Counted from the first letter of the stretch, positions 478 through 17,988 are shown. The stretch: DNA of 19,350 nucleotides from a virus (IMGVR_UViG_2778261129_000006); one strand, 5' to 3'. Translations and numbers: made by a program. Notes: generated by a model not told the origin, from the letters alone.

Positions 478-504
478 AAAAAATAAGCCCGTGTAAGGGA
501 TATT
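478..504. repeat. attL core: 26/27 match to the attR core (aaaaaataagcccgtgtaagggaTatt); degenerate copy of the CyaR 3' terminator
   Basis: Direct repeat of 17818-17844 with one mismatch at 501. Matches the recalled P2 att core AAAAAATAAGCCCGTGTAAGGGAGATT. Confidence 0.75.
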
Positions 505-1712: not shown

Positions 1713-2012
1713 TTAACCAGTCTTTTGACCGGAGTGGGGCGACGTTGTTTCGTTTTGCCCAAAGTGTGCGAGAGCGGGCGCAATTTGCCCGGCTTCTGGA
1801 GCTACCTGATCAGTCATGAACCACAAAGTATATTTAGTAAATCTAGGATGTTGTAAGACCTTCATTATGGCTTCAACTCCAGCGTTTTTTGACCGGCTCT
1901 CATAGCTCGAAAGTGAGCTGTAGGCTACACCAGTTAATTCACTGAATTCTTTACGGTTTAACCTTTCAGATTCACGGATTAGCTTCAACTTCTCCGAAAC
2001 GTCTATTGACAT
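1713..2012 (-). CDS. C: Immunity repressor, P2 C-like (99 aa)
   Basis: ATG at 2012 with GGAG SD. The ORF-track start at 2084 is an upstream extension. C-terminal half (FTKYTLWFMT...APALAHFGQNETTSPHSGQKTG) as recalled for P2 C. Divergent from cox. Confidence 0.75.
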   Translation of the reverse strand: MSIDVSEKLKLIRESERLNRKEFSELTGVAYSSLSSYESRSKNAGVEAIMKVLQHPRFTKYTLWFMTDQVAPEAGQIAPALAHFGQNETTSPHSGQKTG

Positions 2013-2133: not shown

Positions 2134-2409
2134 ATGAATAGACAGCTTGTAAGCGTGACTGATGCCGTGCCTTATCAGGAGTTTGCAAAACTCATTGGTA
2201 AAACTCCAAGAGCTGTAAGGGGCATGATTGAGAAAGGGAAATTACCAGTTATTGAGATTACTGACCCTCAGTCAGTATCGGGGCGTGCTGGTGAATATTG
2301 GGTATACCTTCCGGCATGGAATAACGGACTAAAACTGGCTTATGAAAGCCGTCCTAAAGAGATTCGTGACGGCTGGTTGATGTGGTTAGGTCTCGGTGAA
2401 CCACGTTAA
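2134..2409 (+). CDS. cox: Cox excisionase / early-promoter regulator, P2 Cox-like (91 aa)
   Basis: Sequence (PYQEFAKLIGK...GKLPVI...GRAGEYWVYLPAWNNGLKLAYESRPKEIRDGWLMWLGLGEPR) as recalled for P2 Cox. Same 91-aa length. Confidence 0.85.
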   Translation: MNRQLVSVTDAVPYQEFAKLIGKTPRAVRGMIEKGKLPVIEITDPQSVSGRAGEYWVYLPAWNNGLKLAYESRPKEIRDGWLMWLGLGEPR

Positions 2410-2419
2410 GGAGAACCGT

Positions 2420-2590
2420 ATGAATGAGCCTCGTTGTATTGCTCAGTTATTGCGTAACGAAAGCCCTAGGGCGATTGACTTCACCATCACCCACGGTAAG
2501 GGGCGTAAGGGAATCATTATCCGCACCAAAAAACAGAGTCCGTTAAAAAAGGCTCTGACCTTTCTGAAAAGCCGGAGGGTCTGGAAATGA
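2420..2590 (+). CDS. Small hypothetical protein (56 aa) in the P2 orf78 position
   Basis: ATG at 2420 with AAGGAGA SD. Stop overlaps the B start (ATGA at 2587-2590). An in-frame upstream ATG at 2396 would overlap cox. Confidence 0.45.
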   Translation: MNEPRCIAQLLRNESPRAIDFTITHGKGRKGIIIRTKKQSPLKKALTFLKSRRVWK

Positions 2591-3087
2591 CAGTGATGAC
2601 GCTCAATCTCGTTGAAAAACAGCCAGCAGCTATGCGCCGGATAATTGGTAAGCATCTGGCCGTCCCTCGCTGGCAGGAGACATGCGATTATTATAATCAG
2701 ATGATGGAACGCGAACGGCTAACGGTTTGCTTCCATGCGCAGTTAAAACAGCGTCACGCAACGATGCGTTTTGAAGAAATGAACGACGTCGAACGTGAAC
2801 GGCTGGTTTGTGCAATTGATGAATTGCGTGGGGCATTCTCAAAACGCCGTCAGGTTGGCGCAAGTGAGTATGCATATATTAGTTTTTTAACAGTCAGTCA
2901 GCGTCGTACTTTATTTATGCATGCCGGATTGACTGAAAAAGAATTCAACCAGCCATACTGGCGAATTAATGAAGAATCATGTTACTGGCGTGATGCTTTA
3001 TTCCGTGCATTACGTGAATTATTCAGCCTGTTTGAGTATGCACCGACAATTCTGACGTCGGTAAAACCAGAGCAATATCTGCATTAA
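2587..3087 (+). CDS. B: Replication protein B, P2 gpB-like (166 aa)
   Basis: 166 aa, same length as P2 B. Position between cox and A. Start is translationally coupled to the upstream ORF. Confidence 0.75.
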   Translation: MTVMTLNLVEKQPAAMRRIIGKHLAVPRWQETCDYYNQMMERERLTVCFHAQLKQRHATMRFEEMNDVERERLVCAIDELRGAFSKRRQVGASEYAYISFLTVSQRRTLFMHAGLTEKEFNQPYWRINEESCYWRDALFRALRELFSLFEYAPTILTSVKPEQYLH

Positions 3088-3150
3088 ATAATTAACCAGA
3101 GTTTTTAATGCACTTAATCGTGCGGGGCTTCTTTTTGCCTGGAGAAAGTC

Positions 3151-3375
3151 ATGCATACAGTTTCTGAAAACAAGTGCGGTAAATACGCATTACTGCTGCA
3201 ACAGGCCAGAGCCGAAGCACATGCCGACGCAGCGACACGCTTTTCTTCTCATCTTGACGCCATGATTCGCCATATCACAAAGGCGGAGTTATCCCGCGTG
3301 GAGATAGTCGAGCTGCTCAGTCAGGAGTCGGAAAAATTTCACAATATCGGATTGTCTCGCGGGGAGGTGCTTTGA
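3151..3375 (+). CDS. Small hypothetical early protein (74 aa), P2 orf80-like position
   Basis: ATG with GGAGAAAG SD. Stop overlaps the next start (TGATG). Confidence 0.6.
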
Positions 3376-3674
3376 TGTCCTGTTCTCATTCAGTTGTATT
3401 ACTGAATAACGCCTTAAAAATCGCCGTTATGAAAAATGGCGATTTGTCTCTTATTCAACTTTGCCTTGATAAAGAAAAACGCGACATAACTGAATCTGTT
3501 ATCGCGATTTATCAGAATGAATTAAACCTCCTGTCTGATGTGGTCAATTTACTTGTTAAACGCGCTGTATTCCACAAGCAAATTTCCTCAGTGGATGAAC
3601 TGACAAAATTAACGACAGAACTTGCCAATTATTGCGCTGATGTATCCAGGAAACTTAACGATAAAAGGAGCTGA
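3375..3674 (+). CDS. Small hypothetical early protein (99 aa), P2 orf81-like position
   Basis: ATG at 3375 overlapping the upstream TGA, GGGGAGG SD. The ORF-track TTG at 3372 is less likely. Confidence 0.6.
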   Translation: MSCSHSVVLLNNALKIAVMKNGDLSLIQLCLDKEKRDITESVIAIYQNELNLLSDVVNLLVKRAVFHKQISSVDELTKLTTELANYCADVSRKLNDKRS

Positions 3675-3676
3675 TA

Positions 3677-3901
3677 ATGCCGGACAACGTAGATTTTATT
3701 CAGGAACAACAGGCTGAATTACTGGAGCGCCAGATTAACGCGGCAAGGGTAAAACATTGCGGTGCTTCTGCGCTGGTTTGCGAAGAGTGTAACGCGCCAA
3801 TACCTGCTGCCCGTCGTGCGGCTTACCCGTCAGCCACGCGTTGTGTTTCCTGTCAGTCAGTCTTTGAAGCAAAAAACAAACATTACCGGAGAACGGCATG
3901 A
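3677..3901 (+). CDS. TraR/DksA-family C4 zinc-finger protein (74 aa), P2 orf82-like
   Basis: AAGGAG SD. Four cysteines arranged as CxxC...CxxC (CEECNAP...CVSCQS), typical of phage TraR-like zinc fingers. Confidence 0.7.
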   Translation: MPDNVDFIQEQQAELLERQINAARVKHCGASALVCEECNAPIPAARRAAYPSATRCVSCQSVFEAKNKHYRRTA

Positions 3902-4173
3902 GTATTCGTATTGAAATTGGCGAACGTTATGTCGTTACCAGTGACAGCTTTCAGTTTATTCTCCACGAGAAAAAGAGAGCGGAAAGCGGTAAAAACGCCG
4001 GTCAGGAATGGCTGGCGGTGGTTGGTTATTACCCGAAATTAAGCCAGCTCGTTTCCGGCCTGATGCATCACGATATTCTTACCGGAAGCGCAAAGTCTTT
4101 TGCTGATTTAAACGCGCAGGTTGAGCAACTCAGCAAGCGTTGTTCAGAGGCTTTTGGCTCATATGGCCGTTAA
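3898..4173 (+). CDS. Small hypothetical early protein (91 aa), P2 orf83-like position
   Basis: ATGA overlap with the upstream stop. Its stop at 4171-4173 overlaps the A start region. Confidence 0.6.
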   Translation: MSIRIEIGERYVVTSDSFQFILHEKKRAESGKNAGQEWLAVVGYYPKLSQLVSGLMHHDILTGSAKSFADLNAQVEQLSKRCSEAFGSYGR

Positions 4174-6445
4174 AGCCTCCGGGCGTTTTGTCCCTCCGTC
4201 AGCATTTGCCGCAGGCACCGGTAAGACGTTTACCGGTGCTTATGCATGGAACGCGCCACGCGAGGCCGTCGGGCGCGAAAGACCCCTTACACGTGACGAG
4301 ATGCGTCAGGTGCAAGGTGTTTTATCCACGATTAACCGCCTGCCTTACTTTTTGCGCTCGCTGTTTACTTCACACTATGACTACATCCGGCGCAATAAAA
4401 GCCCGGTGCACGGGTTTTATTTCCTCACATCCACTTTTCAGCGTCGTTTATGGCCGCGCATTGAGCGTGTGAATCAGCGCCATGAAATGAACACCGACGC
4501 GTCGTTGCTGTTTCTGGCAGAGCGTGACCACTATGCGCGCCTGCCGGGAATGAATGACAAGGAGCTGAAAAAGTTTGCCGCCCGTATCTCATCGCAGCTT
4601 TTCATGATGTATGAGGAACTCAGCGATGCCTGGGTGGATGCACATGGCGAAAAAGAATCGCTGTTTACGGATGAGGCGCAGGCTCACCTCTATGGTCATG
4701 TTGCTGGCGCTGCACGTGCTTTCAATATTTCCCCGCTTTACTGGAAAAAATACCGTAAAGGACAGATGACCACGAGGCAGGCATATTCTGCCATTGCCCG
4801 TCTGTTTAACGATGAGTGGTGGACTCATCAGCTCAAAGGCCAGCGTATGCGCTGGCATGAGGCGTTACTGATTGCTGTCGGGGAGGTCAATAAAGACCGT
4901 TCTCCTTATGCCAGTAAACATGCCATTCGTGATGTGCGTGCACGCCGCCAGGCAAATCTGGAATTTCTTAAATCGTGTGATCTCGAAAACAGGGAAACCG
5001 GCGAGCGCATCGACCTTATCAGTAAGGTGATGGGCAGTATTTCTAATCCTGAAATTCGCCGGATGGAGCTGATGAACACCATTGCCGGTATTGAGCGTTA
5101 CGCCGCAGCAGAGGGTGATGTGGGGATGTTTATCACGCTGACCGCGCCGTCAAAGTATCACCCGACACGTCAGGTTGGAAAAGGCGAAAGTAAAACCGTC
5201 CAGCTAAATCACGGCTGGAACGATGAGGCATTTAATCCAAAGGATGCGCAGCGTTATCTCTGCCGTATCTGGAGCCTGATGCGCACGGCATTCAAGGATA
5301 ATGATTTACAGGTCTACGGTTTGCGTGTCGTCGAGCCACATCACGACGGAACGCCGCACTGGCATATGATGCTTTTTTGTAATCCGCGCCAGCGTAACCA
5401 GATTATCGAAATCATGCGTCGCTATGCGCTCAAAGAGGATGGCGACGAAAGAGGAGCCGCGCGAAACCGTTTTCAGGCAAAACACCTTAATCGGGGCGGT
5501 GCTGCGGGGTATATCGCGAAATACATCTCAAAAAACATCGACGGCTATGCACTGGATGGTCAGCTCGATAACGATACCGGCAGACCTCTGAAAGATACTG
5601 CCGCGGCTGTTACTGCATGGGCGTCAACGTGGCGCATCCCGCAATTTAAAACGGTTGGTCTGCCGACAATGGGGGCTTACCGTGAACTACGCAAATTGCC
5701 TCGCGGCGTCAGCATTGCTGATGAGTTTGACGAACGCGTCGAGGCTGCACGCGCTGCCGCAGACAGTGGCGATTTTGCGTTGTATATCAGTGCGCAGGGT
5801 GGGGCAAATGTTCCGCGCGATTGCCAGACTGTCAGAGTCGCCCGTAGCCCGTCGGATGAAGTTAACGAGTACGAGGAAGAAGTCGAGAGAGTGGTCGGCA
5901 TTTACGCGCCGCATCTCGGCGCGCGTCATATTCATATCACCAGAACGACGGACTGGCGCATTGTGCCGAAAGTTCCGGTCGTGGAGCCTTTGACTTTAAA
6001 AAGCGGCATCGCCGCGCCTCGGAGTCCTGTCAATAACTGTGGAAAGCTCACCGGTGGTGATACTTCGTTATCGGCTCCCACACCGACTGAGCATGCTGCA
6101 GCGGTGTTAAATTTTATAGATGAAGGGATTCTAAGTTGGACCGAGCCAGGCATTATGAAGGTACTTAGAGACTTATTGAGTAATGAACTGAAATGCAGTA
6201 ATCGTTCACAGCAGAGCTTTACTCCTTTCAATGGTCGAAGCTACTTTCCTGCCCCATCCGCCCGGTTGACAAGGCAGGAGAGAAAGACTATCCCGAAAAT
6301 TAAGGTTCTTCTTGCACAAAGTGACATTCAGGCTAGTTATTGGGAGCTTGAAGCTCTCGCTCGCGGAGCTGTTTTGGATTTTGGGCATAAGCGTTTTAAA
6401 TTTGATACCGATATCGACTTTTTTGACAGACAGCGTGAGTGGTAG
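4163..6445 (+). CDS. A: Replication initiation endonuclease, P2 gpA-like rolling-circle initiator (760 aa)
   Basis: Start at ATG 4163 (MAVKASGRFVPP), not the ORF-track ATG at 4121. HUH-type motifs HWHMMLF and AAGYIAKYISK. Length close to P2 A. This is not a P4 alpha primase-helicase. Confidence 0.9.
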   Translation: MAVKASGRFVPPSAFAAGTGKTFTGAYAWNAPREAVGRERPLTRDEMRQVQGVLSTINRLPYFLRSLFTSHYDYIRRNKSPVHGFYFLTSTFQRRLWPRIERVNQRHEMNTDASLLFLAERDHYARLPGMNDKELKKFAARISSQLFMMYEELSDAWVDAHGEKESLFTDEAQAHLYGHVAGAARAFNISPLYWKKYRKGQMTTRQAYSAIARLFNDEWWTHQLKGQRMRWHEALLIAVGEVNKDRSPYASKHAIRDVRARRQANLEFLKSCDLENRETGERIDLISKVMGSISNPEIRRMELMNTIAGIERYAAAEGDVGMFITLTAPSKYHPTRQVGKGESKTVQLNHGWNDEAFNPKDAQRYLCRIWSLMRTAFKDNDLQVYGLRVVEPHHDGTPHWHMMLFCNPRQRNQIIEIMRRYALKEDGDERGAARNRFQAKHLNRGGAAGYIAKYISKNIDGYALDGQLDNDTGRPLKDTAAAVTAWASTWRIPQFKTVGLPTMGAYRELRKLPRGVSIADEFDERVEAARAAADSGDFALYISAQGGANVPRDCQTVRVARSPSDEVNEYEEEVERVVGIYAPHLGARHIHITRTTDWRIVPKVPVVEPLTLKSGIAAPRSPVNNCGKLTGGDTSLSAPTPTEHAAAVLNFIDEGILSWTEPGIMKVLRDLLSNELKCSNRSQQSFTPFNGRSYFPAPSARLTRQERKTIPKIKVLLAQSDIQASYWELEALARGAVLDFGHKRFKFDTDIDFFDRQREW

Positions 6446-6533: not shown

Positions 6534-7757
6534 ATGAGCATGGTTGAATGGATAAGCCACGAGAAAAAAGATAGCCTGATACTATTTGTACATGGATTAA
6601 ATGGTGGTTTGGAAACATGGAACTTTAATAAAGAAATTTCATTTCCAAAACTATTAGCAGAAGATGAAGATATTAGCAACGTATTTGATATTGCATGTTT
6701 CAATTATTTTACTAAATTCACACAAACGTATGCTAAAACGTCAGGATTCTTGGCTCGTATTTTCTTTAAGAAAAATAAGTTAGAGAGAAATTTACCAACT
6801 GATGAAATAGCTGAGTTATTGTATACTGAGATTAGAGTAACACTAAGTGATTACTCTCGAATTATAATAATCGCCCATAGTATGGGGGGGTTAATATCAA
6901 AAAATCTAATTCTAAAAAAAGTTGAGCATGAGGAACAATCTAATATAATTGGATTCATTTCGTTAGCAGTCCCTCACTTTGGTGCTAAATTAGCGAATAT
7001 AACTTCAATGGTATCTTCAAATGCTCAGTTAGTAGATCTTGGATTGTTAAGTGAAGCGACTGATACATTGAATAGGCGCTGGATAAATTGTAGCAAAAAA
7101 CTTCCTATCACTAGATATGTTTATGGATCTCATGACACTATAGTCGATAAAAAAAGCGCATTACCGATGGATAGTGAACGACATAACTCAATTGCAGTTA
7201 ATGAAGGGCATAGCTCAATTTGCAAGCCCGAAAATAGCTCGTCTACAGTGTTTGTTGCGGTAAAGCAATTTATTCAGCAGATAAATTTAGAAGCACCCAA
7301 GAAGATTTGCGTTGAGCGTTTTTCTGATGATAAACAATATGATAATGAGTATTTCGTCTTAAAAATGATTGTCGCAGATATACATCAGGATATCGCTCTG
7401 CATGCAAAGGAATATTATTATAATGCTGAGCTTGCGAGAAATATTTTTACGAGTGATTACGATAGAAAACAACTTGGTCATTTGTATTCTAAAATAAGGG
7501 AGATTTACCAGGAAGAGTATGAGCAATACATTGCAAATTCAATTTCCCCAGATAAATTTATTGCTGCTGTTCATAGACGAATAACCCAGGAGGATAAGTC
7601 GTCGTTAGATTCTCTTATAAAAAGTTTGGAAACGATACATAAGAAAGGAATGTTGCATCAACTGGCTAACAAAAATGACAGGGATATTGTCTGGTCATCT
7701 GAAACCAGCGTAGAAACTTTGGAGCAATTACGGCGAGGTAATCATGAAGAAAAATAA
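6534..7757 (+). CDS. Alpha/beta-hydrolase-fold effector protein with a helical C-terminal domain (407 aa); Lamassu LmuA-like / ABC-3C effector candidate
   Basis: Oxyanion-hole motif LILFVHGLNGG. Nucleophile elbow IIIAHSMGGL (GxSxG). Downstream acid and His candidates (GSHDTIVD, NEGHSSI). AT-rich. First gene of the cargo operon. Confidence 0.75.
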   Translation: MSMVEWISHEKKDSLILFVHGLNGGLETWNFNKEISFPKLLAEDEDISNVFDIACFNYFTKFTQTYAKTSGFLARIFFKKNKLERNLPTDEIAELLYTEIRVTLSDYSRIIIIAHSMGGLISKNLILKKVEHEEQSNIIGFISLAVPHFGAKLANITSMVSSNAQLVDLGLLSEATDTLNRRWINCSKKLPITRYVYGSHDTIVDKKSALPMDSERHNSIAVNEGHSSICKPENSSSTVFVAVKQFIQQINLEAPKKICVERFSDDKQYDNEYFVLKMIVADIHQDIALHAKEYYYNAELARNIFTSDYDRKQLGHLYSKIREIYQEEYEQYIANSISPDKFIAAVHRRITQEDKSSLDSLIKSLETIHKKGMLHQLANKNDRDIVWSSETSVETLEQLRRGNHEEK

Positions 7758-7896
7758 CTTGCCGTATATACCTCTTGATGAAGAGTATAGTTTGAATTTT
7801 GCTATGCTTGCCATTGCTATATCTATATTATCTCATAGCAAAAAAGGAGTGTTGTCATTAGATATTAATAAAATACAAATTTTTATGTATCTGTGA
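7744..7896 (+). CDS. Small ORF (50 aa); possibly the N-terminal part of a frameshifted middle-component gene
   Basis: ATG at 7744 with GAGGT SD 5 nt upstream. Overlaps the hydrolase gene end by 14 nt. Its TGA (7894-7896) overlaps the GTG start of the next ORF. Confidence 0.35.
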   Translation: MKKNNLPYIPLDEEYSLNFAMLAIAISILSHSKKGVLSLDINKIQIFMYL

Positions 7897-8258
7897 TAAA
7901 AAATCCATCAAAAATTGATTGTGCTCTTACAGTTTCGGGGAAAAAGCCTGCTTGTGTCGAGTCCCAGTTAACTTATACAATAAAGAGTTTTTCATCAAAT
8001 GTAGATATCTTATTCGACAATTCCAAAGTGAAATATCTTATAAAAATTATGTCATTGCGGGGATTGCTCTCAGCTGAGAAAAAAAATAATGAGAGTGTTA
8101 AATTATTTTTATCTGAAAAAGGTAAGGAATTTGCTAGCTCATTGACTGATGGATATTTTAAAGAAATAAAACGACTAGCCGAAGCATTGTTACCGCTACA
8201 AGCATTGCCTACCTCTAAGTTAAACTCTGTTATAAACAAAGTCTTCAAGGAGAAATGA
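7893..8258 (+). CDS. Small middle-component protein (121 aa from GTG); LmuC-like candidate
   Basis: Frame opens at 7872; first start is GTG at 7893 with no clear SD. Stop overlaps the ATPase start (ATGA at 8255-8258). A small coupled gene between effector and ATPase. Confidence 0.5.
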   Translation: MIKNPSKIDCALTVSGKKPACVESQLTYTIKSFSSNVDILFDNSKVKYLIKIMSLRGLLSAEKKNNESVKLFLSEKGKEFASSLTDGYFKEIKRLAEALLPLQALPTSKLNSVINKVFKEK

Positions 8259-10225
8259 TGAAATCATATCTCAATATCAATAGTTTGATTCTTGTTGGCG
8301 TTCGTAAAAACTACGTCACTACTTTTTATAAAGGTCTCAATGTTATCTACGGAGACTCTGACACAGGTAAGTCAAGTATTCTGGAGTTTATTAATTATCT
8401 TTTAGGTGCTAGTTCTATAGATTTAGCAGATGAAATAAAAACATCAGTAAACTATGCTGCTCTTGAAGTAGTGATCAATGATACTGTATTCACAATCGTA
8501 AGAGATATCTATGATCATAAAAAATCAATAGAAGTTTATCGTTGTAAGTTTGATGATTTACATAAACACTTTCCGAAAAAATACGCTCCTAATTATAGCC
8601 CCTTATCAAATGTTGATGGCGTTTTTTCAGAGTTTTTACTTGATAGTCTTAATTTTCCAAAAATTGAAATTAAGGTGTCTCCTTCTAAAGCACATTCACA
8701 GATGCGCAGGTTAAGCTTTAGAAATATATATAAATTTGTTTATGTAAGTCAGGATGATATTGGTAGTAAATCATTCTTACGATTGGAGGATTGGTCCCGT
8801 TACGCATTTACGAAAGAAGTTTTTAAATACATGTTCAATGTGTTGGATGAAAGCATCGCCAGACTCCAAGGTGAAATATCTGCAAAAAGTAGTTTAGTAA
8901 CGGAACTAAATAAGAAGTATCAGATAATATCTGAATTTCTTCGCGATACAGACTATGAAACAATTGAATCAATTGATGATGAGATTAATAGGATAGATCT
9001 TATTTTAGAAGAACTTGTTGCAGGTTTGTCTGCTCTCGATAAAAATATGAAAGCGGATTCCATGCAGTATACAGAATTGAAAGATGCCCACAATTTTATT
9101 TCGCTTAAATACAAGGAGTGCATATTAAATATTAGCACGCTTGAGGATAAGATTGATAAATATTCGCGGTTAAAAAATGACTATGATAATGATATTGAAA
9201 AACTCAAAGCGATTAAAACAGCAAATTCTCGCATTGGTGTATTGGATAAGGAAGTATTTTCCTGTCCGATCTGTGATAGCCACATTAAAATAGATGATTC
9301 CGATTTTCCATTTGAAATTTCATCAGAAAAAGATCTTAATGAAGAGTTGAATTCACTTAGTCGACGTAGACGAAATATTAATGACATGATCTCAGAAATG
9401 TCATTTAAATTAAAAAAAGAATCTGGTTATAAAAAAGAATTAGATGAACAACTTGACGAGTTGAGAGAGTTAATTGACGAAGAAAGCCAGTCAATGATTA
9501 CACCATTCTTGACTCAGAGAGATTTTTATATTAAAGAGATATCAAAAAACGAGAAGGTTAGGGAGCAGTTAGTAAAAGATTTGAAGGTTAGAAACCAGCA
9601 AGAGGAACTGCTTGAAAAGCATCAGGTACTGATAAAAGATATTGAAACATTAACTGAACGCTTGGATGCGTTAAAGAAAAACGCACCTAGTATGGAAGGC
9701 ATTTTACAAGGTTTAGGTGATAGATTTAGTCAGTATTTGAAGGGTATTAATATCAAAAACAGAACGGGGATAAAAATCTCTGAAAGATATTACACCCCTG
9801 TTATAAGAGGAAAGGAATATTTTAAAATAACGTCCGGAGGTTTGAGAACTATTTCTTCTATTGGGTATCTTTTGTCTATTCTTGATTATGCAATAGACCA
9901 TAATGTTAACCATCCTTTACTTTTGATATTTGATACGGTTGGTAAATATTTAGGGAAACAGACCAAGGAAAAATACTCAAAAGAAACTCTTGCAGTCGAG
10001 GATGACCTTGAGGGGATGTCAGACCCGATGAAGTATCAAAATATTTATGAGCAACTATTGAATACAGTTCAAAAAGCAGAAAGAAAAAATGTTCCGTGCC
10101 AGATTATATTAGTTGATAATGATTTGCCTAATTCGTTTTCTACTGGTGAACTTTCGAATATTATCGCTCATTATAGCTCGGTTGGTGAGGATGGTTTGCC
10201 TTTAGGTTTAATTGATGACCTTTAA
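8255..10225 (+). CDS. SMC/Rad50-like ABC ATPase with coiled-coil insert (656 aa); Lamassu LmuB-like candidate
   Basis: Degenerate Walker A YGDSDTGKSS (8348-8377). Long heptad-rich coiled-coil region with a central CPIC motif (9263-9274). ABC signature-like TSGGLR (9829-9846). Walker B-like LLLIFD followed by T, not E. CAAGGAGA SD. Confidence 0.8.
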   Translation: MMKSYLNINSLILVGVRKNYVTTFYKGLNVIYGDSDTGKSSILEFINYLLGASSIDLADEIKTSVNYAALEVVINDTVFTIVRDIYDHKKSIEVYRCKFDDLHKHFPKKYAPNYSPLSNVDGVFSEFLLDSLNFPKIEIKVSPSKAHSQMRRLSFRNIYKFVYVSQDDIGSKSFLRLEDWSRYAFTKEVFKYMFNVLDESIARLQGEISAKSSLVTELNKKYQIISEFLRDTDYETIESIDDEINRIDLILEELVAGLSALDKNMKADSMQYTELKDAHNFISLKYKECILNISTLEDKIDKYSRLKNDYDNDIEKLKAIKTANSRIGVLDKEVFSCPICDSHIKIDDSDFPFEISSEKDLNEELNSLSRRRRNINDMISEMSFKLKKESGYKKELDEQLDELRELIDEESQSMITPFLTQRDFYIKEISKNEKVREQLVKDLKVRNQQEELLEKHQVLIKDIETLTERLDALKKNAPSMEGILQGLGDRFSQYLKGINIKNRTGIKISERYYTPVIRGKEYFKITSGGLRTISSIGYLLSILDYAIDHNVNHPLLLIFDTVGKYLGKQTKEKYSKETLAVEDDLEGMSDPMKYQNIYEQLLNTVQKAERKNVPCQIILVDNDLPNSFSTGELSNIIAHYSSVGEDGLPLGLIDDL

Positions 10226-10353
10226 TACTATACATGCATTTTTTTGAATTAGATTGCATGTGGATAATGAGTCTATTTAGTGAAGGGAAGGTTTTGTGTG
10301 ACGTGACTTTCGATAAAATTCAACCGCATTAAAACCGCCCCATGAAGCGGGCG

Positions 10354-10372
10354 GGCGAGGCGGGGAAAGCAC
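10354..10372. other. cos cohesive-end site, P2-type 19-mer GGCGAGGCGGGGAAAGCAC
   Basis: Exact match to the recalled P2 cohesive end. Lies in a GC/GT-rich non-coding region between the cargo and portal gene Q, as in P2. Confidence 0.6.
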
Positions 10373-10513
10373 TGCGCGCTGGCGGTGGTGCTGATTTTAT
10401 TTTTTAGCGTCTCAGCGCGTCGTGATGGCGTTTAGATTGTGCGCCGGGGCGTTGGTGTGTCTGCGGGGTGTTTTGTGCGGTGGTGAGCGTGTGAGGGCGT
10501 GATGACGGGGTGT

Positions 10514-10535
10514 AAAAAAGCCGCCCGCAGGCGGC
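10514..10535 (-). terminator. Rho-independent terminator downstream of Q (minus strand)
   Basis: Stem gccgcc/ggcggc with a 4-nt loop (10520-10535). The A6 run at 10514-10519 on the plus strand is a U-tract after the hairpin on the minus strand. Confidence 0.5.
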
Positions 10536-10540
10536 GATGT

Positions 10541-11515
10541 TCAGCCGTTGTCAGTGTCCAGTGAGTAGTTTTTAAAGCGGATGACCTCCTGACCGAGCCA
10601 GCCGTTTATCTCACGGATCCTGTCCTGTAACGGGATAAGCTCATTGCGGACAAAGACCTTTGCCACTTTCTCAATATCACCCAGCGACCCGACGTTCTCC
10701 GGCTTGCCGCCCATCAACTGAAAGGGGATGCGGTGCGCGTCCAGCAGGTCTGCGGCACTGGCTTTTTTGATATTAAAAAAATCGTCCTTCGTCGCCACTT
10801 CACTGAGCGGGATAATTTTAATGCCGTCGGCTTTTCCCTGTGGGGCATAGAGAAACAGGTTTTTAAAGTTGTTGCGGCCTTTCGACTTCACCATGTTTTC
10901 GCGAAGCATTTCGATATCGTTGCGATCCTGCACGGCATCAGTGACGTACATGATGTATCCGGCATGTGCGCCGTTTTCGTAATACTTGCGGCGGAACAGC
11001 GTGGCCGACTCATTCAGCCAGGCAGAGTTAAGGGCGCTGAGATATTCCGGCAGGCCGTACAGCTCCTGATTAATATCGGGCTCCAGCAGGTGAAACACGG
11101 AACCGGGCGCGAAGGCTGTCGGTTCGTTGAAGGACGGCACCCACCAGTAAACATCCTCCTCCACGCCACGGCGGGTATATTTTGCCGGTGAGGTTTCCAG
11201 TCTGATGACCTTACCGGTGGTGCTGTAACGCTTTTCCAGAAACGCATTACCGAACACCAGAAAATCCAGCACAAAGCGGCTGAAATCCTGCTGGGAAAGT
11301 CGCCGAAAATCGCCAGTGTGCATCAGTTCGGTCTGTCGGAAGAAACCCGGAAAGACGGTAAGAAAATTGATTATCCGGCGCGTCCTCTGCTCGGCTTTAC
11401 CGGTGAGGATGTGCAGATGATTGAAGAGATTATCCTGGCTCACCTTGAGCGTTAGTTTTATCCAGGCAGAGGCTGATGCGCAATTAAACATTGAGCGGCC
11501 ATGCTGGTCGCTCAA
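10541..11515 (-). CDS. Q: Capsid portal protein, P2 gpQ-like; probably N-terminally truncated
   Basis: C-terminal region recalled as P2 portal. The longest frame starts only at TTG 11515 (first ATG at 11491), with an in-frame stop just upstream. 324 aa against about 344 aa recalled for P2 Q. Confidence 0.7.
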   Translation of the reverse strand: MSDQHGRSMFNCASASAWIKLTLKVSQDNLFNHLHILTGKAEQRTRRIINFLTVFPGFFRQTELMHTGDFRRLSQQDFSRFVLDFLVFGNAFLEKRYSTTGKVIRLETSPAKYTRRGVEEDVYWWVPSFNEPTAFAPGSVFHLLEPDINQELYGLPEYLSALNSAWLNESATLFRRKYYENGAHAGYIMYVTDAVQDRNDIEMLRENMVKSKGRNNFKNLFLYAPQGKADGIKIIPLSEVATKDDFFNIKKASAADLLDAHRIPFQLMGGKPENVGSLGDIEKVAKVFVRNELIPLQDRIREINGWLGQEVIRFKNYSLDTDNG

Positions 11516-11526
11516 TGTTTAGAGGC

Positions 11527-12312
11527 TTATGAGTGATTTTTATTTGATGCTTTGTATTCTACAACCTTCTTATTGGCGTAAAGGAATTTTGTATATGACA
11601 GGAATATAACCAGACCTGAAATGAAATAGATGAGGGATATTATTAATAATGCTTTTTTTTGGCTGTTATTATCTTTAATTTCCTGACTTAACCATTCCGA
11701 GTCCTCCTCGTTTAGCTGTAAGAGCTTATTGCAGGCGATCTCAGGAAGTGTGTCTTTTATAAATATGTTTCGTAGCCTCTTGCAATCGGCAAGGCTATAA
11801 GTTTTATTGAATTCAACTGTTTTATTGTTGAAGGATAAAAGAACTTTGTCACTATAAACATAGTACATCATATTTTTATATGGTATGCCTATGGCATCTC
11901 TTACTATAGCGGATTGTTTGTTGTGTATATAACATGCGAAGAGAATATAAATAATGCTGGACAGAATTACAATTATTGTTTTAATTATGTGTGGTGGTTT
12001 TGTTATGTCACCCCAGAAGCGAGTAAGAAAAAAATACGATGTTTTTAGTTTTCCATCAATCAGCCCCTGCTGTATCATTCTCACATCTTCGATGCCTGAT
12101 ACATTGATTCCGTTAATTATTTTAAATAGTTGAATGTCGCGCCATTTTTTGTCGAGCATTTTTAACTTTCTGTCTGAATACTCAAAATTGAAATGATGTG
12201 CAATAAACCTCATAAGATTACTTTTACCAAAGGTAATAAATGTTAATGCTATTAATAAAAATAGATACAAAGAGATAAACCACCACGCATTAGTCACATT
12301 ATCACTGAACAT
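11527..12312 (-). CDS. Membrane protein with three predicted TM segments (261 aa); unknown function; AT-rich cargo
   Basis: ATG at 12312 with GAGGAG SD 6 nt upstream. Hydrophobic helices at the N-terminus (WWFISLYLFLLIALTFITF), middle (IIKTIIVILSSIIYILFACYI) and C-terminus (ALLIISLIYFISGLVIFLSY). Base composition unlike the flanking phage DNA. Confidence 0.7.
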   Translation of the reverse strand: MFSDNVTNAWWFISLYLFLLIALTFITFGKSNLMRFIAHHFNFEYSDRKLKMLDKKWRDIQLFKIINGINVSGIEDVRMIQQGLIDGKLKTSYFFLTRFWGDITKPPHIIKTIIVILSSIIYILFACYIHNKQSAIVRDAIGIPYKNMMYYVYSDKVLLSFNNKTVEFNKTYSLADCKRLRNIFIKDTLPEIACNKLLQLNEEDSEWLSQEIKDNNSQKKALLIISLIYFISGLVIFLSYTKFLYANKKVVEYKASNKNHS

Positions 12313-12395
12313 TACGCTCTCCTCGAATGTTGTATGGTCGTTCTACAAATGAATCCAGATAGCATAACTTTTATATATTGTGCAATCTCACACGC

Positions 12396-12830
12396 ATGAA
12401 CACTCTCGCAAATATTCAGGAACTCGCGCGCGCACTGCGCAACATGATTCGTACCGGCCTTGTCGTCGAAACCAACCTTAAAGCCGGTCGCTGCCGTGTG
12501 CAGACCGGTGGCATGTGCACTGACTGGCTTCAGTGGCTGACCCATCGTGCCGGACGTTCGCGCACATGGTGGGCACCTTCCGTGGGGGAACAGGTGCTGA
12601 TTCTGGCTGTGGGCGGTGAACTCGACACGGCGTTCGTTCTGCCGGGGATTTATTCCGGCGATAACCCCGCGCCGTCTGCGTCGGCGGATGCCCTGCATAT
12701 CCGTTTCCCTGACGGGGCGGTGATTGAGTATGAACCCGAAACCAGTGCACTCACGGTAAGAGGAGCTTCTCTGGTGGTGTCTACGTGCTGTTGTCAGCCA
12801 GGTGGATTTGTTAATGGAACGCTTTGTTGA
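12396..12830 (+). pseudogene. V: Baseplate spike gpV fragment: first ~115 codons V-like, then unrelated sequence
   Basis: MNTLANIQELARALRNMIRTG...EYEPETSALTV as recalled for the P2 V N-terminus. The ORF then reads RGASLVVSTCCCQPGGFVNGTLC and stops; P2 V is about 211 aa. Confidence 0.7.
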
Positions 12831-13012
12831 CTTAAATCGTCGTTTGATGAAGTTGGAGACTTCAGAATAAACAAGCCTTAATGAGTATCTGCTTAAAATA
12901 GTGTTATCTACAGATCAAACTTTAGTTGATACGAGTCACTGTCCTCCCCGTAACAACTGGAGTTAAAAGATGTGATGGCATATAAATATAACATCAAATA
13001 ATTATTTTTTTT

Positions 13013-13042
13013 GCCCCTCACCCTTAATTTAGGGTGAGGGGC
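13013..13042. repeat. Perfect 11-bp inverted repeat (gcccctcaccc / gggtgaggggc) with an 8-nt loop, 3' of the glycosyltransferase gene
   Basis: Stem at 13013-13023 and 13032-13042, preceded by a T8 run on the plus strand. The T/A tract is on the wrong side for a canonical terminator on either strand. Confidence 0.5.
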
Positions 13043-13081
13043 GTCAGATACAAAGTTAGGAGTATCTGTAGTTAAGTGTTT

Positions 13082-14196
13082 TTATATTTTTTCGCAAAAA
13101 GAAGAATAATCTCCACAGATTAAGCAACTGACAAGCTCTCTTTGTGCGGGATATATTTGGGACTCATTTACAAGCCCTGTATATGGTAAGAGTGATTTAT
13201 GTATCAAGTTAAAAACGTGAGACTTCTCATTAGTTGTTAAACTTTTTTTGGATAATATGGATGCCAAGTGCTCAACGCAAATAACCAGCCATGCATTAAA
13301 CATTTTTACTATTTCTGCTTCATTTTTATTGCTTGATAAGATATAAATCAAACCTGTTTGTAATACCAAGGCTCTTTGTTTAATGGAGAAAGATGTTTTA
13401 GATAGATGTGGTTCTTCATGGCGATTCAGAGAGTAGTAGCCCTTTCTTGCCAGTATAGATATCGTATTAGCTACAGTTAGGCTCTGGCAAGAAAAAAGCA
13501 TATCCTCATAGACTGAAATTGATGGGTTAAATAAGATGTTGTTATTGATTAGCAACTCTCTTTTAAAGAACTTGAAGATTTTTAATGATCTAAAAAGATG
13601 GTTTTTTATAATATCTGCTTTATTCGTGTCTGCCTTAAATGGGCGTACAGGAACCCCTCTCCCTGTAGAGGAAACCTGCTTGAAATATACAATGTCACTA
13701 TTGTTTTTATAAGCCATCTGAATACCATCGGACAGTAAGTCAGAGTGAATGGAATCATCAGAGTCTAAGAAAAACACATAGCGACCTTTTGCGGATTTTA
13801 TTCCCTCATTTCGCGGCGCTGATGCATTCCCTGAACCAACTGCTCTACGGATAATACGATAATTTATTTCTCTCGAAATGTTATATTCAATGGCGGCAAT
13901 GCTCCTGTCAGTGGAACAGTCATCAATGAAAATAACTTCAAAACAATTTTTATCTATAGTCTGATTGTTTAAAGATTTAATGCATTCGAGAATAAGGGTT
14001 TCTCGGTTGTGAACCGGAATAACAACTGAGACATCAAAGGGATAAATAGAATTAATTTCATTAATTACCGTTGTGATTTTTAGAAGAGAAGTATGCAGGG
14101 CTGTTGTTAAAACAGCAGAAGATGAAATGTTTTCTTTTTTAGTGTTGCCTTTTATAGTATAATAAGGGCAATTATTTCGTAGTACAAAATCCACAT

Positions 14197-14200
<4 letters not shown>
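13082..14200 (-). CDS. Family-2 (GT-A fold) glycosyltransferase (372 aa from GTG)
   Basis: VSVVIPVHNRE motif, FIDDCSTD and FLDSDD (DxD) motifs. AT-rich. The only start in frame is GTG at 14200, overlapping the stop of the upstream small ORF, with no obvious SD. Confidence 0.8.
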
Positions 14201-14391
<191 letters not shown>

Positions 14392-14454
14392 TATGCAACC
14401 TCTAACGTTAATAATGTTTATGAATATTCAGAATGCTATCTCATAACATGAAGC

Positions 14455-14484
14455 ATTATATCTGAACATTGTGACATGATTTAA
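14455..14484 (-). promoter_or_regulatory. Candidate sigma70 promoter for the leader/glycosyltransferase operon
   Basis: On the minus strand: TTAAAT (14479-14484), 18-nt spacer, TATAAT (14455-14460), about 60 nt upstream of the ATG at 14391. Confidence 0.4.
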
Positions 14485-14505
14485 TGAAGTCATCAGCACA
14501 TCATG

Positions 14506-14521
14506 CTGCAATGCATTGCAG
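14506..14521. promoter_or_regulatory. Perfect 16-bp palindrome CTGCAATGCATTGCAG upstream of the candidate promoter
   Basis: Exact palindrome about 22 bp upstream of the -35 element; candidate regulator binding site. Confidence 0.3.
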
Positions 14522-14794
14522 TATAACTAACACGAGGGATTGTTTGCATGGTGATAGTTTTGTTGGTGATAAAATCAGCATAATTAAATATGTTGGCGTA
14601 CATTTTGAACATTTTTAAGCAAAGCAAATTATAAGTATAAAAATAGTTAATGTGAAGTTGTACTCATGTAAAAAGCCCCGCATTCTCTCGAAGGCGGGGA
14701 AGATTTGAAAATTAATGGTACAAATTGACGATTTCATATTCTATTCTGTATTAGAATAAAAGTGAATATAATTATTTATTTTAGGTGATTTTTT

Positions 14795-14820
14795 AAAAAA
14801 AGCCCGTGGAAGCAACGGGC
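14795..14820 (-). terminator. Rho-independent terminator-like hairpin on the minus strand with no gene upstream of it
   Basis: Stem gcccg/cgggc (14802-14806, 14816-14820) with a 9-nt loop. The A7 run at 14795-14801 is a U-tract after the hairpin on the minus strand. Confidence 0.4.
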
Positions 14821-15433
14821 ATAAAACGCGGAATTGATTAAGATCTGTATAATTTAATTTTCTGATTCTATCATGCATATCATTCACAGTGAAGTTGGTA
14901 ATTTAGTAAAACTAGTGATAATGCCACTCGGTTTGATAACAAGAGAAACCACAGCGTGGTTTCGTCGAACAGTTTATGAAGGATATTCCCCCCAAATATA
15001 CACTCGCTTTGTGCTGTAGCAGCGCAGATGCTGGTTGCTATTCTTACCGGGAACTGGGCTTACAAGGCAATAGTAGTGTGACATTCTTCATCGCGCACGT
15101 GCATATCCTGGCTGAAAATCGATGGATAGAAAATATCCGCAAAGGGAAGCGGAGCAGCATACCGTGGTGGGGGCACATGTATGGGGTGTTGGAAGTCTGA
15201 TGGATTTCTTTGTACCAGACAGCTTGTATTTTCATCTTTTCTTTGTTTCTTTGCAGGTAATTATGAGTAGCAACAAATCCTGAATGGCTGGGTATACCGC
15301 AATAAATAGAGGCGGGCAAGTTGCCCACTTTTTCTTTATCTGTTGTTTCATCCACTGCCCAGCCAGGTCAAATAGCGTCTCATGCTTCGCACAACAGAAA
15401 ATAGTTGCACCCATTAACCACGGAGTTAAACGG

Positions 15434-16624
15434 ATGAGTGACTATCATCACGGCGTGCAGGTGCTGGAGATTAACGACGGCACCCGCGTCATTTCCACCG
15501 TATCCACGGCCATTGTCGGCATGGTCTGCACGGCCAGCGATGCGGATGCGGAAACCTTCCCCGTCAATAAACCGGTGCTGATTACCAATGTACAGAGCGC
15601 AATTGCAAAGGCCGGTAAAAAAGGCACGCTGGCGGCGTCGTTGCAGGCTATCGCCGACCAGTCAAAACCGGTCACTGTTGTCGTGCGTGTGGAAGACGGC
15701 ACCGGCGACGACGAGGAAACGAAACTCGCGCAGACCGTTTCCAATATCATCGGCACCACTGACGAAAACGGTCAGTACACCGGACTGAAAGCCCTGATGG
15801 GGGCTGAGTCGGTTACCGGCGTTAAACCGCGCATTCTTGGTGTGCCGGGGCTGGACACCAAAGAGGTTGCCGTCGCACTGGCATCGGTATGCCAGGAACT
15901 GAATGCATTCGGGTATATCAGCGCATGGGGCTGTAAAACCATTTCCGAGGCAAAAGCCTACCGTCAGAATTTCAGCCAGCGTGAGCTGATGGTCATCTGG
16001 CCGGATTTCCTCGCATGGGATACGGTTACCAGTACCACTGCCACCGCGTATGCCACCGCCCGTGCGCTGGGGCTGCGTGCCAAAATCGACCAGGAGCAGG
16101 GCTGGCATAAAACGCTGTCCAACGTCGGGGTAAATGGTGTTACCGGCATCAGCGCCTCTGTATTCTGGGATTTGCAGAAGTCCGGCACTGATGCTGACCT
16201 GCTTAACGAGTCAGGCATCACTACGCTGATTCGCCGCGACGGCTTCCGCTTCTGGGGTAACCGTACCTGCTCTGATGACCCGCTGTTCCTCTTTGAAAGC
16301 TACACCCGCACCGCGCAGGTACTGGCCGACACGATGGCCGAGGCGCACATGTGGGCTATTGATAAGCCAATTACCGCAACGCTGATTCGTGACATCATTG
16401 ATGGCATTAATGCCAAATTCCGCGAACTGAAAAACAACGGTTATATCGTGGATGGCACATGCTGGTTCAGTGAAGAAGCCAATGATGCGGAAACCCTCAA
16501 GGCCGGAAAACTGTATATCGACTACGACTATACCCCGGTGCCTCCTCTCGAAAACCTGACCCTGCGCCAGCGTATTACTTCCAGATACCTGGCAAGTCTG
16601 GTTACCTCGGTTAACAGCAATTAA
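15434..16624 (+). CDS. FI: Contractile tail sheath protein, P2 gpFI-like (396 aa)
   Basis: Start at ATG 15434 (MSDYHHGVQVLEI) with GGAG SD; the ORF-track start at 15284 is an upstream extension. Sequence recalled as P2 FI along its length. Confidence 0.9.
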   Translation: MSDYHHGVQVLEINDGTRVISTVSTAIVGMVCTASDADAETFPVNKPVLITNVQSAIAKAGKKGTLAASLQAIADQSKPVTVVVRVEDGTGDDEETKLAQTVSNIIGTTDENGQYTGLKALMGAESVTGVKPRILGVPGLDTKEVAVALASVCQELNAFGYISAWGCKTISEAKAYRQNFSQRELMVIWPDFLAWDTVTSTTATAYATARALGLRAKIDQEQGWHKTLSNVGVNGVTGISASVFWDLQKSGTDADLLNESGITTLIRRDGFRFWGNRTCSDDPLFLFESYTRTAQVLADTMAEAHMWAIDKPITATLIRDIIDGINAKFRELKNNGYIVDGTCWFSEEANDAETLKAGKLYIDYDYTPVPPLENLTLRQRITSRYLASLVTSVNSN

Positions 16625-16636
16625 GGAGCCTGACCG

Positions 16637-17416
16637 ATGGCAATGCCGCGCAAACTCAAGTTAATGAACGTCTTTCTGAACGGCTACAGCTATCAGGGCG
16701 TTGCAAAGTCCGTCACGCTGCCAAAACTGACCCGTAAGCTCGAAAACTATCGCGGTGCGGGGATGAACGGCAGCGCACCGGTAGACCTCGGCCTTGATGA
16801 CGATGCGCTGTCAATGGAGTGGTCGCTCGGTGGATTCCCGGATTCGGTTATCTGGGAGCTTTACGCCGCAACCGGTGTGGATGCCGTGCCGATTCGTTTT
16901 GCAGGCTCTTACCAGCGCGACGATACAGGCGTAACGGCAAAGTGGTTACACACCAAAGACCCGAAACCGCAAAAGCAGAAGGTAAAACTGAAACGCAAAA
17001 AGAAAGAGAAACACCTGCGCGCACTGGAGCACCCGAACGCGAAACCGGTCAGGCAGAAGAAAGCGCCTAAAGTACCGGAAGCGCGTGAAGGTGAATACAT
17101 GGCCGGTGAGGCTGACAACGTTTTTGCCCTGACCACGGTATATGCCACGAAAGCGCAGGCCATGCGCGCCGCTCAGGCGAAGTGGGATAAGCTGCAACGG
17201 GGCGTTGCGGAGTTCTCCATCAGTCTGGCTACCGGTCGTGCTGATATTTACACGGAAACACCGGTTAAAGTGTCAGGCTTTAAGCGCGTCATAGACGAGC
17301 AGGACTGGACAATCACTAAGGTGACACATTTTCTGAATAATAGCGGCTTCACGACGTCCCTGGAGCTTGAGGTCAGGCTTTCTGATGTGGAGTACGAAAC
17401 AGAAGATGATGAGTGA
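16637..17416 (+). CDS. Chimeric ORF: tail tube gpFII N-terminus (~97 aa) fused in frame to a Lys-rich segment and the gpD C-terminus (259 aa)
   Basis: N-terminus MAMPRKLKLMNVFLNGYSYQGV...SYQRDDTG recalled as P2 FII (172 aa in P2). C-terminus ...WTITKVTHFLNNSGFTTSLELEVRLSDVEYETEDDE resembles the late-control D protein (yegZ-like). E, T and U are absent. Confidence 0.65.
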   Translation: MAMPRKLKLMNVFLNGYSYQGVAKSVTLPKLTRKLENYRGAGMNGSAPVDLGLDDDALSMEWSLGGFPDSVIWELYAATGVDAVPIRFAGSYQRDDTGVTAKWLHTKDPKPQKQKVKLKRKKKEKHLRALEHPNAKPVRQKKAPKVPEAREGEYMAGEADNVFALTTVYATKAQAMRAAQAKWDKLQRGVAEFSISLATGRADIYTETPVKVSGFKRVIDEQDWTITKVTHFLNNSGFTTSLELEVRLSDVEYETEDDE

Positions 17417-17497: not shown

Positions 17498-17716
17498 ATG
17501 TTTCATTGTCCTTTATGCCAGCATGCCGCACATGCGCGTACAAGCCGCTATATCACTGACACGACAAAAGAGCGTTATCATCAGTGCCAGAACGTGAATT
17601 GCAGCGCCACGTTCATCACTTATGAGTCGGTACAGCGATACATCGTGAAGCCGGGAGAAGTCCACGCCGTAAGACCGCACCCGTTGCCGTCAGGGCAGCA
17701 AATTATGTGGATGTAA
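17498..17716 (+). CDS. ogr: Late gene transcription activator Ogr, zinc-finger protein (72 aa)
   Basis: Start at ATG 17498 (MFHCPLCQHAAHARTSRYI...) with GAAGAGG SD; ORF-track start 17435 is an extension. Cys4 motif CPLC...CQNVNC. Last prophage gene before attR, as in P2. Confidence 0.9.
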   Translation: MFHCPLCQHAAHARTSRYITDTTKERYHQCQNVNCSATFITYESVQRYIVKPGEVHAVRPHPLPSGQQIMWM

Positions 17717-17817: not shown

Positions 17818-17844
17818 AAAAAATAAGCCCGTGTAAGGGAGATT
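17818..17844. repeat. attR core AAAAAATAAGCCCGTGTAAGGGAGATT; coincides with the CyaR terminator
   Basis: 27-mer matching the recalled P2 att core. Direct repeat of 478-504. Confidence 0.8.
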
Positions 17845-17904
17845 ACACAGGCTAAGGAGGTGGTTCCTGGTACAGCTAGCATTTTATGGGTTATGTTTTT
17901 CAGC
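17818..17904 (-). ncRNA. cyaR: CyaR (RyeE) small regulatory RNA, about 87 nt, intact
   Basis: Minus-strand sequence GCUGAAAAACAUAACCCAUAAAAUGCUAGCUGUACCAGGAACCACCUCCUUAGCCUGUGUAAUCUCCCUUACACGGGCUUAUUUUUU recalled as CyaR. Terminator hairpin plus U-tract at the 3' end. Adjacent to yegQ as in E. coli. Confidence 0.85.
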
Positions 17905-17988
17905 GAAACGGATGATAACCTTAATAAATGCAGCTGTATGTGATCGGTTTCTAAGAATTTTCCATCCGGGAAAAATAATCGAAATTAA

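Follow-up and report, generated by a model that had tools for sequence, protein, structure and literature searches.

The locus studied here raises the question of whether a P2-type prophage that has lost most of its structural genes is kept by its host as a carrier of accessory genes or is simply decaying. The window, i.e. the whole stretch of 19,350 nucleotides of the viral entry IMGVR_UViG_2778261129_000006, contains such an element. A sequence-only reading of positions 10,354 to 17,416 had described three separate deletions in the late genes, an in-frame fusion of the tail-tube gene FII to the hub gene D, and a prophage domesticated as a cargo carrier. Our analysis indicates that the window in all likelihood holds a defective P2-like prophage of the Escherichia coli B lineage, in the form of a sub-lineage copy with one extra deletion. 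The element is not new: Table 2 of PMC3032704 lists this site as "cyaR RNA: K-12 ogr-D', B P2*B", and it is therefore already catalogued, as P2*B.

A defective P2-like prophage of the E. coli B lineage

The window was compared by megablast with 5,426 RefSeq complete E. coli genomes, to which the genome counts given below refer, and by blastn and tblastn with the DNA and proteins of P2 (NC_001895) as well as with REL606. The flanks were recognized in the E. coli genomes as yegR (1-318) and yegQ/trhP (17989-19350), and the best matches are E. coli B strains, which align at 99.9-100% identity in two or three pieces spanning about 24.2 kb. The REL606 counterpart is a P2-type prophage in which PGAP flags the portal, S, tail-tube and D genes as fragments. 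The element has the gene order of P2-like phages (Peduovirus), homologues of int, C, cox, B, A, Q, V, FI, FII, D and ogr, and the P2 attachment site with its duplicated flanking core.

The early region had been described as intact, and int, C, cox, B and A are indeed all full length by tblastn; ogr is also kept and encodes a protein 100% identical to P2 Ogr. When the P2 proteins were searched against the window by tblastn, none of P, O, N, M, L, X, Y, K, lysABC, R, W, J, I, G, E, T and U gave a match at E<1e-3, so that the announced loss of E, T and U is borne out and none of the missing genes was found elsewhere in the window at this threshold. Since the structural genes are mostly absent, the prophage is unable to make particles, as had been proposed: the complete capsid, packaging, tail and lysis modules of a viable phage are lacking and the element is defective. 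It is not an R-type tailocin either, its sheath alone being intact, with the tube, hub and baseplate truncated or missing and no lysis genes. A tRNA scan found no tRNA in the window.

Three deletions and their distribution

The losses coincide with three junctions (Table 1), between which the conserved cos site, most of Q (residues 93-344) and a full-length FI of 396 residues have persisted as described. The Q/S junction spans Q codon 92 to S codon 97 and joins genes of opposite strands. It had been read as the removal of P through S; most of these genes are gone, but S retains about 53 codons at its end. The Q' fragment amounts to 73% of Q, its 251 aligned residues (93-343) are 100% identical to P2 Q, and it has neither a start codon nor the pP promoter. 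The second junction had been read as a deletion of W through G that left about 115 codons of V. W, J, I and G are undetected and the V N-terminus is kept, but the parental B element has no P2-type G, so that the deletion runs from V to the fibre gene, and V in fact continues to codons 121-123 (codons 1-123 at 12396-12764), followed by 22 codons that are the out-of-frame 3' end of the fibre gene. The V/fibre junction is thus out of frame, and the FII/D junction keeps the frame. The P2 pV activator site upstream of V' (12313-12395) is almost unchanged, and the pF leader differs from that of P2 yet matches viable P2-like phages from about 15310 onward.

One and the same set of 11 genomes out of the 5,426 carries both the Q/S and the FII/D junction: strain B itself, six derivatives of B selected with drugs, REL606, ATCC 11303, AS19 and a nearly identical record of 4.61 Mb named 'strain C'. 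Judged by name or near-identity, the group is entirely of the B lineage, the 'strain C' record being taken as such. The V/fibre junction is found in none of these 5,426 genomes, the 11 B-lineage ones included, and one could wonder whether it is an assembly or editing artefact of the window. This is extremely unlikely, since the exact 144-aa V' product is found on three independent Logan contigs, from three (or more) sequencing runs, the draft GCA_002979635.1 matches across the junction at 99.9% identity, and the junction sits in a 9/11 imperfect repeat. An artefact is refuted by these independent assemblies; as judged from this distribution, the V/fibre deletion is a rare and recent sub-lineage event.

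The exact FI and orf30 proteins were found on at least 1,000 contigs, the longest of which, at 5.2 Mb, exceeds every B genome in size; that they are intact is therefore a mark of youth and no sign of selection. Together with the restriction of two junctions to B, that of the V/fibre junction to a sub-lineage and the existence of an intact sibling prophage in TOE3, this identity leads us to conclude that the deletions are recent and lineage-specific.

The FII-D fusion

As had been noticed, a single in-frame open reading frame (ORF) joins the FII N-terminus to the D C-terminus at 16637-17416. In the blastn and tblastn comparisons with P2, it matches residues 1 to about 100 of FII and 225-387 of D at 99%, and it aligns end to end with no single natural protein. 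The same chimera has been deposited for REL606 as ACT39646.1, and the FII Shine-Dalgarno sequence is retained. The lysine-rich stretch that had been taken for a linker turns out to be native gpD, 99.4% identical to P2 D 225-387. Two Pfam domains are recognized, Phage_tube (1-95/165) and Phage_GPD (214-304/305); both are truncated, which argues against an intact fold. In the chimera, a tube protein would thus be represented by about 60% of its length and a hub protein by roughly its last 40%, with no partners, and the fusion is most likely a non-functional by-product; it is best read as a deletion scar and not as a new device.

One could imagine that the chimera is functional, for example as a dominant-negative tube/hub fragment that would poison the tail assembly of superinfecting P2-like phages when made from an Ogr-activated pF. 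The reading frame, the native ribosome-binding site and an Ogr-type promoter region common to viable phages would suit such a role, as would further in-frame fusions between FII and D, of which the protein collection contains several (P0005, P0061, P0063, P0103). These matches are however biased, since a protein search sees in-frame fusions only, and a similar junction found by DNA search outside the B lineage, FII(49)-D(224) in the Galapagos seawater isolate MB06022, is out of frame. In addition, at least 12 different genes are found as partners of D' at these same points, which makes the D' end the common factor, and the truncation of both domains also speaks against a function, which we regard as highly improbable. 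The in-frame FII/D fusion is consistent with chance, the prior for an in-frame outcome being 1/3 and one such outcome being seen among these junctions.

Accessory genes

Three cargo insertions had been counted. Two of them stand, at the classical old/tin and Z/fun positions of P2, but the third (11527-12312) is P2's own orf30. In the Lamassu operon, LmuA and LmuB are full length and LmuC is not intact, its second ORF covering positions 48-166 of the 168 of the model. The TG insertion at 7892-7893 that splits lmuC is also found in REL606 and in the Logan and draft copies sharing the V/fibre deletion, and is absent from the lmuC genes of B CP115178, ATCC 11303 and TOE3. From this frameshift, the Lamassu defence is probably dead in part of the B lineage.

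The glycosyltransferase gene contains a CTGG tract of eight units in the window, seven in REL606, 35 in B CP115178, 21 in ATCC 11303 and five in a draft. It forms a single 453-aa coding sequence only when the number of units is a multiple of three, and is annotated so at 21 units (ATCC 11303). The cassette is present in 30 genomes, about 18 of them non-B, among which the annotation flips between one and two coding sequences; its span differs between strain B and its drug-selected derivatives. The tract thus lies within the ORF, its length varies among close relatives and the frame toggles, which are the properties of a phase-variable gene based on simple sequence repeats. On sequence grounds, the glycosyltransferase behaves as a repeat-number phase switch that is OFF in the window. 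To our knowledge, tetranucleotide-repeat switches have rarely been reported in E. coli. As the state of this one differs between sibling B stocks, it could affect surface or phage-sensitivity phenotypes of B strains.

Immunity and excision

The C repressor (WP_000020919.1) is the same protein as in the intact TOE3 prophage. The genes flanking C and cox are 98-100% identical to P2, whereas C and Cox share 65% and 84% identity with their P2 counterparts. This fits the role of P2*B as the defective prophage that is reported to have donated its immunity region to P2 Hy dis (Cohen 1959). Of the Hy dis Cox residues quoted in PMC3936717, E33 agrees with the Cox of the window and T25 disagrees, the window having T24-P25.

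All named B strains carry the element except BL21(DE3) (NC_012971 2,065,949-2,066,280), in which yegQ and yegR lie 330 bp apart and the site consists exactly of the left flank of the window, one 27-bp core and the right flank. BL21(DE3) is thereby excluded as the strain from which the window comes. By parsimony, the BL21 pedigree probably lost the element by precise Int/Cox excision between the att sites, and this clean single-core empty site indicates that excision, at least, is a function that the early region has kept. The host can do without the element, which can probably still be excised.

Decay, domestication or parasitism

We propose that an intact P2-type prophage would have occupied the P2 attachment site at cyaR/yegQ, a relative that is still intact, and shares the repressor, cox and Lamassu genes, persisting in TOE3. 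Three illegitimate deletions at short imperfect repeats would then have disabled the B copy: one of 8.3 kb between Q and S, one of 4.8 kb between V and the 3' end of the fibre gene, presumably recent and confined to this sub-lineage, and one of 4.3 kb from about codon 98 of FII to codon 225 of D, in which the frame would have been kept by accident to give the 259-aa ORF. The C repressor would keep the element silent. P2 late promoters need Ogr or a satellite activator, and V', FI and FII'::'D, which stand behind such Ogr-dependent promoters, would be made only if Ogr or the activator of a helper or satellite were supplied; we infer that expression of the late remnants is conditional. A sigma-70 promoter scan of the window gave no more than the shuffled expectation, such a scan being uninformative for Ogr-dependent promoters. 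Only the accessory genes, which sit at the three moron positions classical for P2, would plausibly contribute to a host phenotype, two of them probably being off in this strain.

Some points weigh against this account. The breaks in V and D are shared with many unrelated remnants, so that the deletions may not be simple random microhomology events. FII-D fusions recur, with about six different junctions, for which a selective or mechanistic reason is possible. Moreover, we infer the silence of the late remnants from P2 biology.

The proposal that the host keeps a stripped prophage for its accessory genes, with selection shaping the losses, has some appeal. Three accessory loci are kept beside an intact early region, and the moron positions of P2 are hotspots for defence genes. 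The BASEL paper (PMC8594841) has also attributed phage phenotypes of E. coli B to its cryptic prophages. A domesticated remnant would however show the same decayed structure across diverged hosts, and the junctions are limited to one lineage, with 11 genomes out of 5,426, all B. The FI and orf30 proteins have not diverged from those in larger E. coli genomes. More generally, what is retained shows 98-100% protein identity to P2 or full identity to proteins of larger E. coli genomes; too little time has passed for selection to be read from it in either direction. BL21(DE3) has done without the whole element, and a further 4.8 kb has been lost in the window. The cargo itself is partly inactive, lmuC being frameshifted in the window and in REL606 and the glycosyltransferase being in the OFF frame in the window, which argues against selection for a cargo carrier. 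Finally, the intact prophage of TOE3 carries the same cargo, and some 18 genomes outside the B lineage have the glycosyltransferase, so that a prophage need not decay to carry cargo. We thus consider domestication, the conclusion of the sequence-only reading, to be quite unlikely.

Another hypothesis would be that the 17.4-kb unit is excised, replicated and packaged by a co-infecting P2-like helper, in the manner of a satellite. All the parts required in cis and in trans are present (int, cox, A/B with ori, cos and ogr), and excision is indicated by the empty site of BL21(DE3). Like a P4-like satellite, the element has its own integrase, replication genes and cos and mostly lacks structural genes. 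No helper-manipulating genes of the sid, psu, delta or epsilon type were found, however, all ORFs being P2 genes or morons, and no sign of horizontal spread was seen, all observed copies lying at the same chromosomal site within a single lineage. The repressors of P2-type phages do not respond to SOS induction, nor would infection by a heteroimmune helper relieve repression. In addition, the element is of a size that does not suit the P2 head unless it is dimeric. A satellite-like life is thus very unlikely, and recent, lineage-specific decay of a P2-like prophage is the reading that we retain.

Recurrent break points in P2 remnants

A search of the protein collection with the chimera revealed some 30 distinct ORFs that combine D' with another P2 gene, the partners including V, J, I, H, G, FI, FII, E, T, U, L, A, orf91 and the pF leader. 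At D codon 233 (...TGG[C/T]TA\CACAC..., where the backslash marks the join), at the start of a polypurine tract coding for the Lys-rich region, at least 13 different partners join exactly; about eight joins fall at codons 222-225, those of the window and MB06022 among them, and about six at codons 133-138. In P2 numbering, the break points are V codon 121 (nt 10670) and D codons ~135, ~225 and ~233 (nt 23188, 23463 and 23485). This sample is conditioned on the retention of D' and, for the protein matches, on being in frame; the clustering on the D side was confirmed by the nucleotide junctions of nine loci. Position 10670 in V is the left break in the window and in two other loci (L016, L017), and the right end in a further one (L010). 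FI codon 127 and FII codon 49 are each joined to two different D sites. The window itself carries two of the recurrent break points, V 121 and D 225. The hotspot classes are individually rare in complete genomes, and a census showed that the D fragments in complete genomes are mainly of the K-12 and B types.

A tentative hypothesis is that the decay of P2 prophages is not random and that a sequence-directed process breaks the same nucleotides repeatedly, although we consider this somewhat less probable than its negation. The leading candidates would be recombination by the P2 integrase at core-like quasi-sites and, alternatively, replication forks that stall and switch templates on the polypurine tract encoding the Lys-rich part of D. 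Other causes were considered, and none was established. The exact CGGTA repeats present elsewhere in D are not those used, and the best microhomology alone therefore does not explain the choice of site. Ligation at RCCGGY restriction sites fits the D-225 class only, Chi-like motifs give no more than 5-6/8 matches, which is not significant, the junctions do not fit splice-like GTAAG, and the end points are not at ori, as pseudo-sites of the rolling-circle A protein would require. Most of the V proteins labelled 'partial', of 122-174 aa, are cut short by a contig end and are not chimeras.

If the reuse of break points is driven by the integrase or by structure, it would provide a concrete mechanism of prophage dismantling. 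For the known B prophage, the analysis yields base-level junctions and presents the chimeric gene as the scar of a deletion. Two by-products perhaps carry greater weight, and alone merit follow-up: the break points that recur and the glycosyltransferase switched by a repeat.

Map of the prophage

The features of the element are collected in Table 1. At its right end, the P2 att core coincides with the terminator stem-loop of the small RNA CyaR (17826-17853, minus strand), the 3' end of which is rebuilt by integration.

Table 1. Features of the P2*B copy in the window (positions in nucleotides; aa, amino acids)
Feature	Position	Strand	Evidence
attL core, 27 nt, first 23 nt as in P2 attP core	478..504	+	blastn to P2 24356-24382
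int, 337 aa, full length, 99.7% identical to P2 Int	584..1597	-	tblastn; REL606 annotation
Immunity repressor C, heteroimmune allele, 65% identity to P2 C	1713..2012	-	tblastn
cox, 91 aa, 84% identity to P2 Cox	2134..2409	+	tblastn
Early operon orf78, B, orf80-83, A (760 aa), all full length	2420..6445	+	tblastn
P2 ori nick-site sequence, conserved	~6010-6045		string match
Lamassu/ABC-3C defence cargo, old/tin position	6534..10225	+	Pfam CTD8, MC4; PADLOC LmuA/LmuC/LmuB
lmuA (alpha/beta-hydrolase domain and CTD8)	6534-7757	+	Pfam, PADLOC
lmuC (MC4), split by +2 (TG) insertion at 7892-7893	7744-7896 and 7893-8258	+	
lmuB	8255-10225	+	PADLOC
cos cohesive-end sequence GGCGAGGCGGGGAAAGCAC	10354..10372	+	overlap of cosR and cosL alignments to P2
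Q' portal fragment, residues 93-344	10541..11299	-	blastn, tblastn; PGAP pseudogene in REL606
Q/S junction, 8,260 bp lost relative to P2 and TOE3, GGGAA(A)G microhomology (6/7)	11293..11299		blastn
S' fragment, last ~53 codons (final third of S)	11300..11455	+	blastn, tblastn; PGAP pseudogene
orf30 homologue, 261 aa, native non-essential P2 gene, 84% over 261 aa	11527..12312	-	tblastn; P2 annotation
V' ORF, V codons 1-123 and 22 out-of-frame codons, 144 aa	12396..12830	+	tblastn; Pfam Phage_base_V
V/fibre junction, 4.8 kb lost relative to REL606, imperfect repeat CGG[T/A]AAG[C/A]GGA (9/11)	12754..12764		
3' remnant of B-type tail-fibre gene, ~35 codons	12765..12870	+	alignment to REL606 20575-20680 (extracted stretch)
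Family-2 glycosyltransferase cargo, Z/fun position, OFF, split 14197-14391 and 13082-14200	13082..14391	-	Pfam Glycos_transf_2
(CTGG)8 tract in 5' part of glycosyltransferase gene	14203-14234		TRF: 8.8 copies, to 14237
FI tail sheath, intact, 396 aa	15434..16624	+	tblastn
Chimeric ORF FII(1-98)::D(225-387), 259 aa, native FII ribosome-binding site	16637..17416	+	
FII/D junction, 4,307 bp lost, imperfect repeat ACCGG[C/T]G[A/T]AACGG (11/13)	16925..16937		blastn
ogr late activator, 72 aa, 100% identical to P2 Ogr, own promoter region	17498..17716	+	tblastn
attR core, identical to P2 attP core, overlaps CyaR terminator	17818..17844	+	blastn, sequence comparison
CyaR small RNA, host gene at integration site	17821..17906	-	Rfam RF00112, 100.7 bits

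Comparison with known prophages

The closest known element is P2*B of REL606 (NC_012967 2,098,775-2,122,930), which has the same site, genes and Q/S and FII/D junctions and is 99.9% identical on either side of the extra deletion. The window differs from it by the absence of 4.8 kb comprising the V C-terminus, W, J, I and most of the fibre gene, and by one additional CTGG unit, with eight against seven. Five C>T (G:C>A:T) changes, at 1450, 4457, 7839, 16186 and 18997, are private to REL606 and absent from the window, which fits the mutagenesis history of REL606. At 3628 and 8629, the window has A where REL606 and strain B both have G.

The intact sibling prophage of TOE3 (CP069086) occupies the same site, has the same Lamassu operon, encodes C and Cox without any difference in protein, and is 98.6% identical to the window over the first 11.3 kb. 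In contrast to the window, it has all the virion and lysis genes, and it lacks orf30 and carries another cargo at the Z/fun position. With P2 itself (NC_001895), the window shares the order int-C-cox-B-A-[moron]-cos-Q...S-orf30-V...[moron]-FI-FII...D-ogr-att, with 92-98% DNA identity in the shared blocks and conserved cos, ori and att core. Unlike P2, it is deprived of about 17 kb of late genes, has heteroimmune C and cox, and carries Lamassu in place of old/tin and the glycosyltransferase in place of fun(Z).

Four other decayed P2-like prophages, those of MB06022, GCA_012219145.1, GCA_027274895.1 and GCA_014911025.1, resemble the window in their reuse of the break points FII 49/98, V 121 and D 135/225/233, but their partner genes are different, as are their locations in the chromosome and their sequence lineages (FI being 93% identical to that of the window). 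The MB06022 remnant stands at the same site as that of the window and displays a cox'-'G fusion (9862-10292 of its extracted locus), which results from a deletion through A, cos and most late genes.

A last parallel can be drawn with the cryptic prophage PR-X of K-12, the remnant ogr-D' (ogrK and yegZ), which occupies the same attachment site, with the 3' end of D and ogr beside cyaR. Only 629 bp is left there (MG1655 2,167,183-2,167,811), namely ogrK and 219 nt of D. Its left junction lies within the att core, after CCCGTGTA, where it is joined to D at about codon 318 (...AAGCCCGTGTA\GCAGAG, the backslash again marking the join; the equivalent positions in the window are 495 and 17204). This junction in the att core suggests an integrase-promoted deletion, and PR-X looks like the end state of the same decay.

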